Shown: in pieces, positions 1,955 to 61,654 of the stretch | Layout: each line of letters opens with the position of its first letter | Position numbering within the stretch: position 1 is the first letter of the stretch | Sequence record: PV467748.1 | From: a phage | DNA length: 64,000 nucleotides | Strand: one strand, 5' to 3' | Notes under the pieces: model-generated | Seen by the model: the letters and a program-made list of their open reading frames with translations, nothing else | Told to the model about the DNA's origin: nothing | Database searches by the model: none | Program-made: the position numbers and the translations under genes

Positions 1955-3234
1955 TGTCTAAGATTGTAGACCTAATTAAAGAATCCACATTGACGGCTGC
2001 CAACTCGGTTGGCCGTCCTGCTCTTCTTTCATACACCCAAGCAACTAATAAACGAATCTTTAAAGCCTTAGTTGCTGAACAAAAAACAAGTCAACCTGTT
2101 GCCGCTCTGTACGGGGTTCGTGTACTTAATCCTGATGACAAAATGACTTATCTTGGTGGCGCTACATTTGCAGGCCAGATTGGTATGTCGGAACGTGAAA
2201 ATATTCCTGAATTTACCGATTCGTCTACAGCTTATGCAGCCGGCGATATGTTCCAGTTTGAAAGTGTAGTGTTTAAAGTTCTGGAAGCATCTCCTTTCGC
2301 CGGAACCACAGAAACTGACCTCGGTGAAGTTATTTCTGAAGCAGTGGCTGCTGGGCATATTCGTATGGTATCAGATGCGGCTATTACTTCTAAATTCGAA
2401 CAGGGCCATCCTGAAATTGCTGAAGCAGGCTTCCGTATTGATAAGTGGCAGACTGAAGTTAAATCACGTAAACTGAAAACTTCATTGACCGTCGAATTAG
2501 CCCAAGATCTAGAATCAAACGGGTTTAATGCTCCTAATTTCGTTGAAAACCTGCTAGGCATTCAAATGGCAGAAGAAATTAATAAGGACGTATTACAGTC
2601 ATTAATTACGGTGAGTTCTCGTTTTAAAGTCCAGGGTGTTTCCGAAAAGGGTGTATTGGACCTTACCAACCCACGTTACGATAATGCTCAGGACCGTGCT
2701 CGTACATTGTATTATTACATGTGTGAGATGAACTCTGCCGTACAACGCCAGACTTCTTTCGCTGGGACTTATGCAGTAGCTAGTTCTCGTTGTGCCGCTA
2801 TTCTTGCCGCATCTGGTTGGGTTGAGAAAAAGGAAGACCAAGACGAACTGGCTTACGGTATATTAAAAAATGGCCTGCCTCTTTATGCCGATATGAATAG
2901 TCCGTGTGATTATGTTATTGTTGGTGTAAATGCTCAGATGGGTGAAGGACAGACGGTCGCATCTTTATATTATGCGCCTTATACGGAAGGTTTGAATGAG
3001 GTTGATGAGGAAGGGGATACTTCAGTAGGTGAATTTAAGGTTATTGTTGACCCGGAAAGCTTACAACCTACAGTAGCATTGCTTGCTCGTTATGCATTGA
3101 CTGCAAACCCTTATACCGTCGCTAAGGACGATAAAGAAGCCCGCATTATTGATGGTTCTGATATGGACAAAATGGCTAATCAAAGTCAATTGAGTTCTTA
3201 TCTCGGTGTAAAATTACCACCTTTAGAAAAATAA
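1954..3234 (+). CDS. Second, diverged gp24-like capsid vertex protein paralog
   Basis: 426 aa, collinear with the upstream gp24 (shared LQSLITVS, YAPYTEGL, SLQP, ANPYTVAKDDKEAR blocks) but diverged; start overlaps upstream stop (TAATG). Confidence 0.8.
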   Translation: MSKIVDLIKESTLTAANSVGRPALLSYTQATNKRIFKALVAEQKTSQPVAALYGVRVLNPDDKMTYLGGATFAGQIGMSERENIPEFTDSSTAYAAGDMFQFESVVFKVLEASPFAGTTETDLGEVISEAVAAGHIRMVSDAAITSKFEQGHPEIAEAGFRIDKWQTEVKSRKLKTSLTVELAQDLESNGFNAPNFVENLLGIQMAEEINKDVLQSLITVSSRFKVQGVSEKGVLDLTNPRYDNAQDRARTLYYYMCEMNSAVQRQTSFAGTYAVASSRCAAILAASGWVEKKEDQDELAYGILKNGLPLYADMNSPCDYVIVGVNAQMGEGQTVASLYYAPYTEGLNEVDEEGDTSVGEFKVIVDPESLQPTVALLARYALTANPYTVAKDDKEARIIDGSDMDKMANQSQLSSYLGVKLPPLEK

Positions 3235-11831: not shown

Positions 11832-12312
11832 TAAAGAGATTTCTATTCCTAAATTGGGTCTTAAACACCAGAAATTGGTTAAAGATGAAAAAGACCCTTA
11901 CAAGGCTCTTCACATATTAATGAATTCCATTTATAAAGATTTATCCGCGGCAGAGACTGATTTTGCCGCTCTTCACCTTTTAGAATTCAATGGAAGATTA
12001 AAAAGTAAAGTAACCAAAGACGGGTTTACTTATAACTTAAATGACCTTTATATTTGCCAACGACTTGAATTCCAATTCCAAGGTAAAACATTTAAATTTA
12101 AATCACATGAACCATTTCAAACATTTGGGCCTGTTGATAGTGTATTACAGTCCCTTTACCTTGGTGATGATGTACCAGATTTTCTGGATATGCCTGCCTT
12201 TGTTGCTACATGGGCCGACGATATAACTTCTACTATAGCTATCCCTGGTCCTAATGGTCCTATCAAAGGATTGCTTAAAATCATGGATATCTTAAATGAA
12301 GAACGAATCTAA
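11785..12312 (+). CDS. 28: Baseplate distal hub protein gp28
   Basis: ORF track 11743..12312; Met15 start gives 175 aa (T4 177 aa); overlaps gp27 3' end. Confidence 0.65.
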
Positions 12313-22556: not shown

Positions 22557-22577
22557 AATAATTCCTCTTAATACCTG

Positions 22578-22585
22578 TATTTATG
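22578..22585 (-). promoter_or_regulatory. Possible late promoter variant (CATAAATA) upstream of alt array
   Basis: rc reads CATAAATA about 25 nt upstream of alt paralog 3 ATG; 7/8 match to TATAAATA. Confidence 0.3.
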
Positions 22586-22587
22586 CC

Positions 22588-22610
22588 AGAAAAAGGCCCG
22601 AAGGCCTTTA
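22588..22610 (-). terminator. Hairpin aaaggcc-cgaa-ggccttt with flanking A/T runs
   Basis: Palindromic hairpin between the small ORF ending at 22611 and alt; T-run on minus-strand RNA. Confidence 0.5.
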
Positions 22611-22796
22611 TTAAGGAAGTACTAGCAGAGTACGGTAAACTTCAAATTTAGGACCCTTTTCATAGCGGTCGAAATTATCTTTAAAATCAGCGAACGCGAT
22701 TTCATTTTCAAATTCAAGGACAATTTGGGACACTGCGGTGGAGACATCGCCACCTTCTTTATATCCAATAACCACGGTTTCTAAATAAGCTTTCAT
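22611..22796 (-). CDS. Hypothetical small protein (61 aa from Met15)
   Basis: ORF track 22611..22838 overlaps ligase; shortened to internal Met just after the ligase stop. Confidence 0.35.
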   Translation of the reverse strand: MKAYLETVVIGYKEGGDVSTAVSQIVLEFENEIAFADFKDNFDRYEKGPKFEVYRTLLVLP

Positions 22797-22797
22797 A

Positions 22798-26387: not shown

Positions 26388-26753
26388 TTAGATATCGAAT
26401 TCATTCAGAACTACATCAAAGATTGCTTCCAGGTGTTCAGGTTTAGCTCGGTTGCTCAGGATGTGACGAATCCAGGTTTTAACCAGAAGCTTACGATTAG
26501 AACCGTTCCAGCAAGGATGGGTACCTAAATCACGTTGACGGAAATCGTCATCTAAAGCGATTTTAAAAGTAGAACCTTCCATAGTGATTGAAACCGTAAT
26601 ACCATTTTCAAAGCGCATGTAAACGTAGTTAGGAGTCATGCACTGTTCGATTTCACACACTGTACCGTTTTCGTGTTTCCACAGGCAAATAACTTCGGAA
26701 GAACCAGCGATACCGTTAGAAACATATTTACGTTCGAAGTTGATGTAGTTCAT
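26388..26753 (-). CDS. Hypothetical protein, 121 aa
   Basis: ORF track 26388..26846; start moved to Met32 (MNYINFERKY...) preceded by GGAG RBS inside the conserved leader. Confidence 0.5.
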   Translation of the reverse strand: MNYINFERKYVSNGIAGSSEVICLWKHENGTVCEIEQCMTPNYVYMRFENGITVSITMEGSTFKIALDDDFRQRDLGTHPCWNGSNRKLLVKTWIRHILSNRAKPEHLEAIFDVVLNEFDI

Positions 26754-26793
26754 TTTTATTCTCCAGTTTGTTTTCGTATTATTTGGTACAGCT

Positions 26794-26826
26794 CTATAAT
26801 AACACAACCTGTACCAAAGTAAAACA
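26794..26826 (-). promoter_or_regulatory. Early-type promoter (minus), -10 TATTAT, -35 GTTTTAC
   Basis: Upstream of the conserved leader for the 121 aa gene; weaker -35 match. Confidence 0.35.
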
Positions 26827-26827
26827 T

Positions 26828-27160
26828 TTATTTCACAACATTCCAATTTTTCATATCAAGTTTACCAACTTTTTTCATCTGAGCAATCAGACGTTCAGCG
26901 CGTGTACGGGCATTAACGTAATAGAATTCACCAATTTTGTTTTCTTCAATACGACCAGTAATTACAGTTTTCAGTTCATAAATCCAACCTGTAAAGAAGT
27001 TGTGAAGCTCGATGGTAAATGTGAAATCAGTACCCATACCTTCAGTTGTTTCAACTTCGATGATATCACCTTCAACTGCAGTCAGGACCCACATGGTTTC
27101 TTGATATCCACCGTTGAAACATTTAGCTTTAACAGATGCATTCAGATTTACAGTTTTCAT
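26828..27160 (-). CDS. Hypothetical protein, 110 aa
   Basis: ORF with same conserved 5' leader and early promoter. Confidence 0.5.
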   Translation of the reverse strand: MKTVNLNASVKAKCFNGGYQETMWVLTAVEGDIIEVETTEGMGTDFTFTIELHNFFTGWIYELKTVITGRIEENKIGEFYYVNARTRAERLIAQMKKVGKLDMKNWNVVK

Positions 27161-27199
27161 TTTATTCTCCAGTTTGTTTTCGTATTATTTGGTACATGT

Positions 27200-27231
27200 C
27201 TATAGTATCATGCCTACCGGAGATGTACACC
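27200..27231 (-). promoter_or_regulatory. T4-type early promoter (minus): GTGTACA -35, TACTAT -10
   Basis: rc reads GTGTACAtctccggtaggcatgaTACTAT upstream of the 110 aa gene. Confidence 0.45.
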
Positions 27232-27252
27232 TTTTTTTTAAGATTTAGAAAC

Positions 27253-27278
27253 AAAAATGGGACTCCGAAGAGTCCCAT
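27253..27278 (-). terminator. Intrinsic terminator (minus) after small basic ORF
   Basis: Hairpin tgggactc-cgaa-gagtccca followed on the transcript by UUUUUGUUU. Confidence 0.6.
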
Positions 27279-27281
27279 AAC

Positions 27282-27443
27282 TTATGCCTGAGGCTTACCA
27301 AAGCAAGCAGCATCTGCACGCAATACTGCACGAGCACGAGCTTGAAGCTTATCAACTACCTGATTGATACGCTTGTTGGACGCACGCTTGTAACCAGCGC
27401 GTTTAGAGGTACCGTCAACTACTTTAACTTCTTTCTTAGCCAT
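27282..27443 (-). CDS. Small basic protein, 53 aa (not in ORF track)
   Basis: Hand-translated MAKKEVKVVDGTSKRAGYKRASNKRINQVVDKLQARARAVLRADAACFGKPQA; in-frame ATG to TAA, terminator immediately downstream. Confidence 0.45.
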   Translation of the reverse strand: MAKKEVKVVDGTSKRAGYKRASNKRINQVVDKLQARARAVLRADAACFGKPQA

Positions 27444-27706
27444 TTTTAAATCTCTTAAATTAGGATGCAGGACTTATTGGCGTTGCCTGCGCAAGCCCTC
27501 AAGGGGAACATAGGTTTTGGATATTTAACGACAGGATAACCATAAACCTCGTCATCATACCAACCACGACTTAGACAGATAACCTTTTTCTGACGCGTGA
27601 TAGTACAAAATACATTCAAGAGGTACACCGTAAAACTGTTGGGGTCTTAAAACTATAATGATTCGCAAATCATTAATCAAACAGTTCGACGGCTCCTCGA
27701 TTTAAT

Positions 27707-27955
27707 TTACTTCAGGGTAATAATAAAATGACGTACTGCTTTACGAGCTGCTGAAGCCAAAGGCTTAGCAAATTTCAGTTCATCTTTAGCTTCCAGTTCA
27801 GCAGCCAGAGTAGCCTGAGCAGGATTCAGATGTTTGAAATAACGCAGGATTTCCAGTGCTTCGGCTTCGACATCAATAGATGCGCCGTAGTTTTCGTGAC
27901 CGTTGTTCCAAGCGTTGCGTTGCAGTTCAAGAGCGTGATTCAATTGTTTGTTCAT
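27707..27955 (-). CDS. rIII: rIII lysis inhibition accessory protein
   Basis: 82 aa (T4 rIII 82 aa); position between 30.x cluster and gene 31. Confidence 0.75.
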   Translation of the reverse strand: MNKQLNHALELQRNAWNNGHENYGASIDVEAEALEILRYFKHLNPAQATLAAELEAKDELKFAKPLASAARKAVRHFIITLK

Positions 27956-28101
27956 TTTAGTTTCTCAATTCGAGATAAAGATTGGTGGACACGTTCTTCT
28001 GAATTTCACTTCCTTTCGGCAAGTCTCTCAGTTGTAGTCCACCGCTTAGGATTCTCCGGTTAACTAACTAGTCCGGCAGCCAATCCATATTATTATTTAT
28101 A

Positions 28102-28425
28102 TCACTTATAAAGACACGGAATAGCTTTATAGTGACAGGTAACGAATTTCTGTTTAATTTCTTTAGGTTGCTTAATACCGAGCGCAACTAAAGGATGAGG
28201 CACGTTAGCAATCTTACCAACAGGAAGTGGAGTCAAATCACCTACTTCACAAAAACCTTCAGGGACATCAGGTCCTACAGAATAAATTTCACAAAGTTCG
28301 GGGATTTCACCTTGATGAAGCTTGCCAATAACGATACCAGATGCAGTAGTTTCTTCATCGCCAGCTTGTTTTGGTTCGGAAACGAGAATAACATATTCTC
28401 CGACCGCTTTAATAGGAAGTTCCAT
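28102..28425 (-). CDS. 31: Co-chaperonin gp31 (GroES analogue)
   Basis: 107 aa; collinear with recalled T4 gp31 ([36 protein letters not shown]-term [17 protein letters not shown]). Confidence 0.9.
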
Positions 28426-28454
28426 ATTTAATCCATATTGTTTTGTTGATAGAT

Positions 28455-28485
28455 TAATAATAACACGCTATTCTTAAAGCATATT
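28455..28485 (-). promoter_or_regulatory. Candidate MotA-dependent middle promoter for gene 31
   Basis: rc reads aTATGCTTTAAg (MotA box TGCTTtA) then 12 nt then TATTAT. Confidence 0.4.
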
Positions 28486-28783
28486 ACAGGACAAGCAGAG
28501 TTTCAGTCTGAAGCCCGTTAATAGAAATCAGTTTATCGAAACGGAACGAGCGCCAGTCATTAACCTTGGTATCAAATACTCTGATGTAATTAACAGGTTC
28601 TTTATTGGCTTCAGGCCCAGGGGCCTGGACTTCTTTATATGGAAGCAGGTCTAAGTCACGTGTACAAGTCATACGACGGGCACTACCATCAGCCTTTTCA
28701 AACAGAACTTCGTGAAAGCCTACAGACAAAATAGTCTTGACTTTTTCACGCAGACGAATAGTTTCTTGTTCAGTTAAAATCAT
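28484..28783 (-). CDS. Hypothetical protein (31.1 position), 99 aa
   Basis: ORF; position. Confidence 0.45.
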   Translation of the reverse strand: MILTEQETIRLREKVKTILSVGFHEVLFEKADGSARRMTCTRDLDLLPYKEVQAPGPEANKEPVNYIRVFDTKVNDWRSFRFDKLISINGLQTETLLVL

Positions 28784-30742: not shown

Positions 30743-31021
30743 TTAAATTGCTTCGACAACTACCGTTTGTTTCTGGAAGTCCATTTTGCATGAAATAGCC
30801 AAAATGTGGTTATCAATTTTAAATGGAACGATTGCAAATGCTGCACCAGACGTGAGTTGGACAGTGATTGCATCAACTGCATCTGGGAACATGATTTCCA
30901 GAATAGCAGACAAACGGCCGTGAACTTTTAATTCAATCGACGTGTCGACAGGTTCGTATAGGTAATCAGATACAATCTGACTAAAAACTACTTTAACAAT
31001 TTCAGAATAAGTAGGGAACAT
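30743..31021 (-). CDS. Hypothetical protein, 92 aa
   Basis: ORF. Confidence 0.4.
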   Translation of the reverse strand: MFPTYSEIVKVVFSQIVSDYLYEPVDTSIELKVHGRLSAILEIMFPDAVDAITVQLTSGAAFAIVPFKIDNHILAISCKMDFQKQTVVVEAI

Positions 31022-31028
31022 AATTACC

Positions 31029-58315: not shown

Positions 58316-58348
58316 TTTAATCTCCGATAACCGTTTATTTGATAGGTC

Positions 58349-58380
58349 TTATAGTATCATGTTTAAAGCAGAAGTAAACA
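58349..58380 (-). promoter_or_regulatory. T4-type early promoter (minus) for motA
   Basis: rc reads GTTTACttctgctttaaacatgaTACTAT. Confidence 0.5.
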
Positions 58381-58403
58381 CCTTTTTGCACTAAACCAAA
58401 AAA

Positions 58404-58419
58404 GGAACCCGAAGGTTCC
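58404..58419 (-). terminator. Hairpin ggaacc-UUCG-gguucc plus U-run downstream of gene 52 operon
   Basis: 6 bp stem, UUCG loop, followed by UUUUUUGG on minus-strand RNA. Confidence 0.55.
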
Positions 58420-58524
58420 TTACTTTTTAAAGTGGGCTGCTATTAAACCTATAGCTAAGCCTGTCGCCAGGCCTAGGATAACAACAAAGATGCAGAGTAA
58501 AAAGAACTCGACTCCAAGGCTCAT
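58420..58524 (-). CDS. Small hydrophobic peptide, 34 aa (not in ORF track)
   Basis: Hand-translated MSLGVEFFLLCIFVVILGLATGLAIGLIAAHFKK; ATG overlaps gene 52 stop (ATGA). Confidence 0.35.
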   Translation of the reverse strand: MSLGVEFFLLCIFVVILGLATGLAIGLIAAHFKK

Positions 58525-61398: not shown

Positions 61399-61509
61399 TC
61401 AGAAGTTAAAGAATACACGTACATGGTCAATCATAAAAACGATTGGGAAAATGCTCAATACGACCAATAACACAAACATGTTCCAAATTGCTTTAAGTAA
61501 GTTTTTCAT
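61399..61509 (-). CDS. Small hydrophobic peptide, 36 aa (not in ORF track)
   Basis: Hand-translated MKNLLKAIWNMFVLLVVLSIFPIVFMIDHVRVFFNF; early-promoter-like motif upstream. Confidence 0.25.
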   Translation of the reverse strand: MKNLLKAIWNMFVLLVVLSIFPIVFMIDHVRVFFNF

Positions 61510-61654
61510 AATCATCTCCATTAGTTGATAGGTCTATAATATCATGATTAATGGAGATGTATACTGATTTATGCCAATTTCCACAACAATAAACTAAAAC
61601 ATACGCAAATCACTGGGGTACAGGCCATCCAAATAAGGCACCACGTTTTGCTAC

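Follow-up and report, generated by a model that had tools for sequence, protein, structure and literature searches.

A conserved, structured non-coding RNA region between rIII and gene 30.9 of a Dhakavirus phage, also carried by T4

Early mRNAs of the T7 type carry RNase III processing hairpins between their cistrons. Among the structured RNAs of T4 are rnaC and rnaD (species 1 and 2), encoded in the tRNA cluster, and its translational operators include the leader pseudoknot of gene 32, the hairpin of gene 43 and the RegA sites, which lie on the start codon itself; a 2010 review listed no riboswitch or trans-acting small RNA as functionally characterised in this phage (PMC3014915). PeSL elements of T4-like phages (Arbiol 2010; Comeau 2014, PMC4122927) are intergenic, combine sigma-70-like hexamers with a stem-loop, and mark a plastic early-gene region of indels and module exchange; they are compact (stem-loop, promoter, Shine-Dalgarno sequence and ATG within ~100 nt), occur in many copies per genome, have the early promoter TTTACW-N17-TAYWAT in the T4/PST group, and have been proposed to move as cassettes by mini-circle excision and integration (PMC4122927). 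Here, the spacer between rIII and gene 30.9 (27444-27706, minus strand, 263 nt) is compared with these systems, using a 64,000-nt stretch of phage DNA (PV467748.1; the window) from a Bp7/JS98-like relative of T4 (Dhakavirus). The spacer is non-coding and strongly constrained in sequence, carries sense-strand hairpins with compensatory changes, and belongs to a unit that ends at a terminator (27248-27278, minus strand). From rIII towards 30.9, it consists of four modules in the order HP1-M-H-T. A preliminary description, made from the sequence alone, had reported an uncalled 53-aa ORF (open reading frame) and a spacer that may encode a small RNA or a structured leader; the ORF was already known, and what stands is the spacer, as a conserved non-coding region with RNA structure that T4 also has.

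A rough greedy call of ATG ORFs of at least 45 aa placed the spacer first among all ORF-free gaps in the 64 kb (263 nt; median gap, 18 nt), in agreement with its earlier characterisation as unusually long. The companion statement that no ORF exceeds about 25 codons is correct for ATG starts and fails for other bacterial start codons, which give a 57-aa ORF from GTG (27455-27628) and a 41-aa ORF from TTG (27555-27680), both on the gene strand. Neither keeps its frame in relatives: single-base indels, together with a ~50-nt deletion in T4, shift the 57-aa frame in Mosigvirus, T4 and JS98, and module H contains frame-shifting 1-nt indels (GACGAGG vs GACGGG, CCTGTC vs CCTGGTC, CCAAAACC vs CCAAAAACC). 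As no ORF of the spacer stays intact between genera, each being disrupted by 1-nt indels, the spacer is read as non-coding; no spacer ORF matched PHROG or Pfam. In the records MZ417521 (phage 132) and OR327750 (KK4), the short ORFs annotated within the spacer are spurious.

The spacer is also carried by T4, the reference phage (244 nt; T4 130541-130784), and in comparisons with T4 and Mosigvirus its conservation exceeds that of the flanking genes. Against T4, 94.3% of the aligned columns are identical, compared to a proportion of synonymous differences (pS) of 0.49 in rIII and 0.54 in 30.9, and against Mosigvirus the spacer is 94–95% identical with a pS of 0.28–0.50 in rIII (30.9 pS of 0.53–0.56 over the T4 and Mosigvirus pairs). 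The reverse pattern occurs at locus L009, where the flanking genes are nearly identical (pS 0.03–0.07), the spacer is only 93% identical and HP1 is present as its other allele, so that the history of the spacer is partly decoupled from that of its neighbour genes. A spacer of 155–416 nt separates rIII and 30.9 in 27 of the 34 related loci. It is single copy in the window, with a blastn search finding only the spacer itself, and a host origin was rejected after a search of 5,426 E. coli genomes gave no match to the spacer.

The first structural element is HP1 (27620-27698, minus strand), a two-part hairpin of 79 nt that begins 8 nt past the rIII stop codon. Its lower stems are formed by GAGG/CCUC, GCCGU/ACGGU and GAACUGUU/AACAGUUU, and its upper stem by UAAUGAUU/AAUCAUUA with a UGCG loop; the fold has a free energy of -23.9 kcal/mol (z = -3.96), which was reached by 0 of 200 shuffles. 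Across 15 distinct variants, the 25 pairs of HP1 are paired in 99.2% of cells and 5 of them show two-sided changes, a covariation score matched by 0 of 500 shuffles (slid controls, 28–62% paired), though covariation throughout was measured on only ~15 distinct sequences per module. G-U occupies three positions of HP1 in all or most sequences, and the compensatory changes in both HP1 and H pass via G-U intermediates. As the invariant G-U pairs become C-A mismatches on the opposite strand, the pairing of both hairpins is read on the gene strand. The sole promoter-like site in the spacer (sigma-70-like TTGATT-17-TATAGT; 27652-27680, minus strand; 9/12 matches) is embedded in HP1, with its hexamers in the internal loop and the 17-nt stretch between them forming the upper stem. 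The 5′ arm of HP1 lies upstream of this site and the 3′ arm downstream, and because the 5′ arm precedes any start there, the covarying helix forms only in RNA that reads through from rIII.

A second hairpin, H (27526-27557, minus strand; to 27513 with the conserved tail AAUAUCCAAAACC), pairs UGAUGAC(G)AGG with CCUGUCGUUA around the loop UUUAUGGUUAU. Its 10 pairs are paired in 90.6% of cells, 4 with two-sided changes, and its covariation score (0.239, compared to 0.063 in shuffles) was reached by 0 of 500 shuffles. H is the only module present in every sampled genus that has the spacer, and was found in Dhakavirus, Mosigvirus, Tequatrovirus, Gelderlandvirus, Mosugukvirus and Klebsiella-type phages. 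The H loop follows the consensus UU-NNN-GGUUAU, and GGUUA occurs in the loops of both M and H. A covariance model of H detected one copy in the window (79.8 bits; next match, 16 bits), and the possibility of a repeated operator was rejected for that single copy. In L021, L022 and L180 (PM2), the H loop is complementary over 9, 9 and 7 bp, respectively, to a tail 12–16 nt downstream and the variable loop triplet covaries, which suggests an H-type pseudoknot in those phages; the same pairing was rejected for the window and T4, where just 4–5 bp are available, a chance-level number. Between HP1 and H, the M hairpin (27574-27594, minus strand), which is thermodynamically weak, has a 4-bp stem, CAGA/UCUG, and the conserved loop AAAAGGUUA; in the few sequences at hand, variants retain the pairing as CAGC/GCUG (L012) and CAGGC/GCUUG (PsgM04F).

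The last module, T (27467-27506, minus strand), is nearly invariant and abuts the ribosome-binding site of 30.9, for which a Shine-Dalgarno-like AAGAG (27452-27456) and the ATG (27441-27443) can be read directly on the minus strand. It contains a small hairpin, CCC-N5-GGG, and two overlapping alternatives, GGCUUGC-GCAG-GCAA(C)GCC and GCAGG-N14-CCUGC. One pair with a two-sided change favours GCAGG/CCUGC, and a third alternative breaks in the same sequences. The first of the two overlapping alternatives is the GC-rich palindrome, ggcgttgcctgcgcaagccc, that was offered in the preliminary description as evidence of structure: it is present at 27479-27498, folds no better than shuffled sequence (z = -0.36), and is almost invariant, with its sole covariation being the two-sided pair of the overlapping hairpin. 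The proposal of a small RNA or structured leader was thus right in kind, the spacer being non-coding and constrained with covarying sense-strand hairpins, but the supported elements lie outside the palindrome; the suggested folding and covariance comparison with related phages found the spacer conserved, with compensatory changes in HP1 and H. A hairpin stands shortly upstream of the 30.9 Shine-Dalgarno sequence in all sequences read in detail, which span several genera, and in T4 and Mosigvirus the T hairpin is followed by an AUUUUC tract able to pair with GAGAAU in the Shine-Dalgarno region.

Relatives differ by whole modules at fixed joints, such that a single position is occupied by M, by a 137-nt element (S) or by nothing, and HP1 and a further module, PK, are either present or absent. 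The order is PK-HP1-H-T in T4, PK-HP1-M-H-T in RB69-like phages, HP1-S-H-T in JS98, M-H-T in L012 and L195, H-PK-S-T′ in the Klebsiella type and PK-(truncated HP1)-H-T″ in STML-198. In T4- and RB69-type phages, the rIII stop codon is directly followed by PK, a ~35-nt module that is lacking in the window. Though at first read as a pseudoknot, PK of T4 may be a degenerate 5′ fragment of tRNA-Gln, because it has TTTATTGGAGATT in common with the start of a tRNA-Gln gene on the non-T4 contig L053; a preQ1-like reading of PK was dropped, with consensus positions unmet and no Rfam match. Two alleles of HP1 are common to several genera and uncoupled from the flanking genes. The S element occurs in 407 GenBank phage records, mostly without annotation, compared to ~776 spacers of the window type in GenBank; it lies between rIII and 30.9 in JS98 and in T4-like phages of Klebsiella, Enterobacter, Edwardsiella and Erwinia (JS98 L002, ~2290-2430, minus strand; L022-L028; L186-L194). 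It has five helices with 31 pairs, of which 98.5% of cells are paired and 11 pairs show two-sided changes (0 of 500 shuffles match), and it has no Rfam match. This undescribed 137-nt RNA is a candidate new RNA family upstream of 30.9, possibly riboswitch-like; in the window, which has no S, the 48-nt M segment stands at that position.

Searches for catalogued elements returned only negative results. With the covariance models of Rfam 15, matches in 26500-28500 were at chance level (E > 5) and nothing was found at E ≤ 1 in the spacers of nine relatives, and ARAGORN detected no tRNA or transfer-messenger RNA (tmRNA) genes in the window; a known RNA family, tRNA or tmRNA was rejected on these grounds. 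By-eye candidates for a late promoter (TATAAATA), a MotA box and a hammerhead core were dropped as the consensus positions were unmet and Rfam gave no match. A pattern-scan match to the FGYQER motif of Microviridae capsid genes is a coincidence of a badly specified pattern. Phage ATK47 carries an ‘ori type 2 repeat’ label, a 10-nt annotation beside the 30.9 start, which suggested a T4 replication origin at the spacer; this was rejected, as none of the mapped T4 origins (oriA, C, E, F, G) lies at rIII, according to a review that locates oriA by soc, oriC by rI.-1 and oriE by repEA. Within the reach of the literature searches, no description of the rIII-30.9 intergenic region was found.

The favoured reading, held at about even confidence, is that the spacer acts in cis as a structured intercistronic or leader RNA of the rIII-30.9 message on the gene strand. 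Under this reading, transcripts would pass through rIII, whose promoters in T4 include early, middle and late ones (PMC9409239), cross the spacer and 30.9, and stop at the terminator at 27248-27278. HP1 would mark or protect the rIII/30.9 cistron boundary as a processing or stability element, possibly via RNase III or via RegB, an enzyme that cleaves GGAG in T4 early mRNAs (PMC9409239); an invariant GGAG at the 5′ base of HP1 (27693-27696, minus strand) is a candidate target and may be cleaved by analogy. H and T would then set the translation level of 30.9, probably by factor binding together with occlusion of the Shine-Dalgarno sequence. Read-through transcription of the spacer, and its roles in processing and translation control, are inferences. 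HP1 (27620-27698), H (27526-27557) and T4 130541-130784 constitute defined targets for mutation, and if the RNA does control 30.9, it would offer a first approach to this conserved early gene, for which no function is known.

Among the described systems, the hairpins of T7-type early mRNAs resemble HP1 in their architecture (lower stem, internal loop, upper stem) and in their placement between two cistrons of a single message, a likeness of form only. An RNase III site comprises about two turns of double-stranded RNA and HP1 has 17 + 8 bp with interruptions, but its internal loop is very asymmetric (~4 vs 16 nt) and the 17-bp lower stem is itself interrupted. With the T4 translational operators (PMC3014915), the locus has in common a hairpin with a conserved loop and an A-rich strand upstream of the ribosome-binding site, and in some relatives the loop-tail pseudoknot of H (7–9 bp, compared to 4–5 bp in the window and T4); unlike the RegA sites, H is ~85 nt upstream of the ATG. 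Riboswitch and attenuator leaders are alike in their succession of structured RNA, alternative hairpins, U-rich tract with Shine-Dalgarno sequence and gene, the JS98-type leader including the 137-nt multi-helix RNA, and are unlike in that no Rfam aptamer matched, the window has no 137-nt element and its T hairpin has no canonical terminator tail.

Several observations weigh against a cis-acting role. Part of the high spacer identity may stem from horizontal exchange as opposed to selection, and probably both contribute. A long spacer is not found everywhere. Seven loci, those whose rIII is the most divergent (L029-L034, L031), are exceptions: in L031 only 9 nt separate rIII from a 30.9-like ORF, and in the other six no 30.9 homolog was detectable. 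HP1 is absent in L012, L195 and L201 and truncated in STML-198, and is therefore dispensable. None of M, H and T is thermodynamically exceptional when folded against shuffles; T, with a fold no better than shuffled, is too invariant for a covariation test, and the helix that would occlude the Shine-Dalgarno sequence is weak in the window. Lastly, HP1, M and PK sit among the tRNA genes of phAPEC8-like phages with neither rIII nor 30.9 there, an occurrence that is not predicted by a role tied to these two genes.

These tRNA-cluster copies also speak for a free-standing, trans-acting small RNA encoded by the spacer, an explanation that is doubtful though somewhat likelier than the other alternatives. 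Such an RNA would either start at the embedded TTGATT-17-TATAGT and end at the T hairpin or be excised from a longer transcript, and could serve host takeover, act as an anti-defence decoy or be a stable RNA like rnaC and rnaD. A diverged PK-HP1-M copy, 75% identical, lies on the tRNA strand between tRNA-Gln and tRNA-Pro in PsgM04F and in the Phapecoctavirus phages phiWec188 and phiWec190 (L178 565-765, L182 1501-1701), where tRNA processing would free a discrete RNA, and it keeps the spacing of the hexamers (CTGATT-17-TATGTT). Loops and linkers are conserved in addition to the stems, and a U-rich tract follows the last hairpin in T4, STML-198 and the Klebsiella types. The promoter itself, however, is at chance level, as its 9/12 matches are to be set beside 4 promoter-like sites found in the region and 4.8 expected from shuffles, and its -35 is weakened to CTGATT in T4, Mosigvirus and most relatives, where the variable base covaries with its stem partner and is explained by pairing in HP1. 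An RNA that started there would lack the 5′ arm of HP1, and in Salmonella phage STML-198 the entire upper part of HP1 is gone, including the promoter-like site, yet the lower stem, H and T remain. At the proposed 3′ end, the window T hairpin has a 5-bp stem, a 14-nt loop and no U-run, and a terminator scan of the spacer reported none (the sequence after HP1 is UUGAAUGUAUUUUGU, and that after the T hairpin AUCCUAAUUU). In addition to the lack of a matching Rfam family, the spacer shows no similarity in sequence to either rnaC or rnaD, for which reason a paralog of these was rejected; the likeness is confined to their being structured phage RNAs and to the presence of HP1 among phAPEC8-like tRNA genes, whereas the spacer of the window and T4 lies in mRNA between protein-coding genes, tRNA genes being absent from the window.

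A mainly DNA-level role as a mobile PeSL-type cassette, in which the spacer would serve as a recombination joint with a transcription restart for 30.9 and its conservation would reflect frequent recombination between co-infecting phages, is unlikely. Like PeSL elements, the spacer is intergenic, lies in a plastic early-gene region and joins a stem-loop to sigma-70-like hexamers, here a match at chance level. The association with indels and module exchange was found, in a mosaic alignment with whole-module differences at the same joints, in the allele swap of L009 and the crossing of genera by two HP1 alleles decoupled from flanking genes (the phAPEC8-like allele resembles that of the T4-like L009 and phi25-307), and in a copy on L053 (IMGVR_UViG_2974717474_000001), a 149.5-kb non-T4 contig with a tRNA cluster related to the phAPEC8-like one. 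Between tRNA-Gly and tRNA-Gln of L053 (1930-2290, minus strand) is a complete T4-type spacer with the last 85 nt of rIII, 98–100% identical to a T4-like phage, in which the spacer runs into an ATG fused to the final 27 codons of rIII. In blastn alignments, the insert is a circular permutation of a T4 segment comprising the rIII 3′ end, the spacer and the initial 9 nt of 30.9. Its junction is a 7-nt microhomology, and on either side stands a 13-nt direct repeat, TTTATTGGAGATT, which is the leader and first 8 nt of the contig's own tRNA-Gln. This clean transfer of a T4 segment into the tRNA cluster of another family looks like the product of mini-circle excision and short-homology integration, a footprint that fits the model for PeSL cassettes. 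Against this, compensatory changes via G-U show selection on RNA pairing and not on DNA homology alone. The layout also differs from that of PeSL elements, as the arms of HP1 enclose the promoter-like site, ~200 nt of conserved RNA separate it from the 30.9 ATG, and the window has a single copy. A mobile cassette would describe how the spacer spreads, not how its RNA acts, and is compatible with either RNA role.

More speculatively, and with a lower probability still, the rIII-30.9 gap could serve as a docking site for non-coding RNAs that are modular and move horizontally, and that would act as free RNAs or ribonucleoproteins, possibly with gp30.9. Such a family would be represented by HP1, M, H and T in the window and by the 137-nt S element in some 400 further phages, with functions such as host takeover or anti-defence. 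A docking site would explain the same modules inside the tRNA clusters of unrelated phAPEC8-like phages, and, if true, would mean that T4 carries an overlooked functional RNA.

A small protein, either the 57-aa GTG ORF or an 18-codon ATG ORF (MFPLRACAGNANKSCILI), is scarcely credible, as coding is essentially excluded: both are on the gene strand and some GenBank records call short ORFs here, but the H indels and T4 deletion alter the frame between genera, PHROG and Pfam gave no match, and the 18-codon ORF has no Shine-Dalgarno sequence and an ATG that is ACG in L016 and absent in STML-198 and the Klebsiella types.

Downstream of the spacer, the 53-aa basic ORF (27282-27443, minus strand, ATG start) is real and was given its correct coordinates in the preliminary description, but the claim that it was unannotated did not survive comparison: a gp30.9 homolog is annotated in Bp7 and JS98 and gene 30.9 in T4, and residues 1–53 match phrog_1427 (unknown function, E = 4.3e-27). 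By homology and gene order it is an already known gene of the T4 family, 30.9, and not a new gene. Homologs were found by tblastn in 28 of the 34 related loci, with 65–100% identity to 30.9 of T4-like phages and the core motif SKRAGYKRxSNKRINQ...RARAV, and Bp7, JS98, T4, ATK47 and PM2 have a common synteny of rIII, 30.9 and 30.8 on the same strand with a terminator after 30.9. The ratio of non-synonymous to synonymous proportions (pN/pS) was 0.11–0.49 in comparisons with ten relatives, and the gene is, judged by these substitutions, under purifying selection. In a collection of 5.8 billion proteins, the 41 homologs with a named source were all from T4-like phages and, save for one label, ‘hypothetical protein’. 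The homolog of Klebsiella phage PMBT63 (UniRef) is labelled ‘1,4-alpha-glucan branching enzyme’, an evident misannotation, and the same label on the feature beneath the spacer match in MK524178 (PHB12) is an annotation artefact. No match to gp30.9 was found in Pfam, NCBIfam or the PDB. An AlphaFold2 model predicts a basic disordered N-terminus and a single helix (residues 28–48; mean predicted local distance difference test score, 70). In T4, the 30.9 RNA is classed as early and gp30.9 was undetected by mass spectrometry (PMC9697503 supplement). The intrinsic terminator that ends the rIII-30.9 unit is as strong as the preliminary description stated (stem 27278-27257, 9 bp, UUCG loop, U-run; -15.7 kcal/mol; z = -4.75 vs shuffles), and ARNold terminators are annotated at the same place after 30.9 in phage ATK47. 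The expression of rIII and 30.9 in vivo is reportedly the subject of Driukas and Nivinskas 2003 (Biologija), a paper cited in PMC9409239 that the full-text searches did not return.

The minus strand carries every gene of the neighbourhood: gp31 (28102-28425), rIII (27707-27955; 82 aa), the 53-aa ORF, and then 30.8 and 30.7. As the upstream gene of the transcription unit, rIII matches phrog_1457 (E = 5.5e-43) and is annotated in Bp7, JS98 and T4. A 1-kb query around the locus retrieved 763 phage records, with Escherichia phages Bp7 and IME281 (Dhakavirus, T4 relatives) at the top (99% identity). Further ORF-free gaps of 205–241 nt appeared in the rough call at 22557-22797, 30792-31028, 61425-61654, 11832-12040 and 58316-58520. 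A near-identical repeat, GTACCAAATAATACGAAAACAAACTGGAGAATAAA(A)ATG, occurs in the leaders of both 30.8 and 30.7 (27161-27240 and 26750-26830, minus strand), each preceded by an early-promoter-like GT(G/T)TAC-17-TA(C/T)TAT and with a Shine-Dalgarno sequence that includes GGAG, a RegB-type motif; this repeat accounts for the second match place per record in the 1-kb query search.

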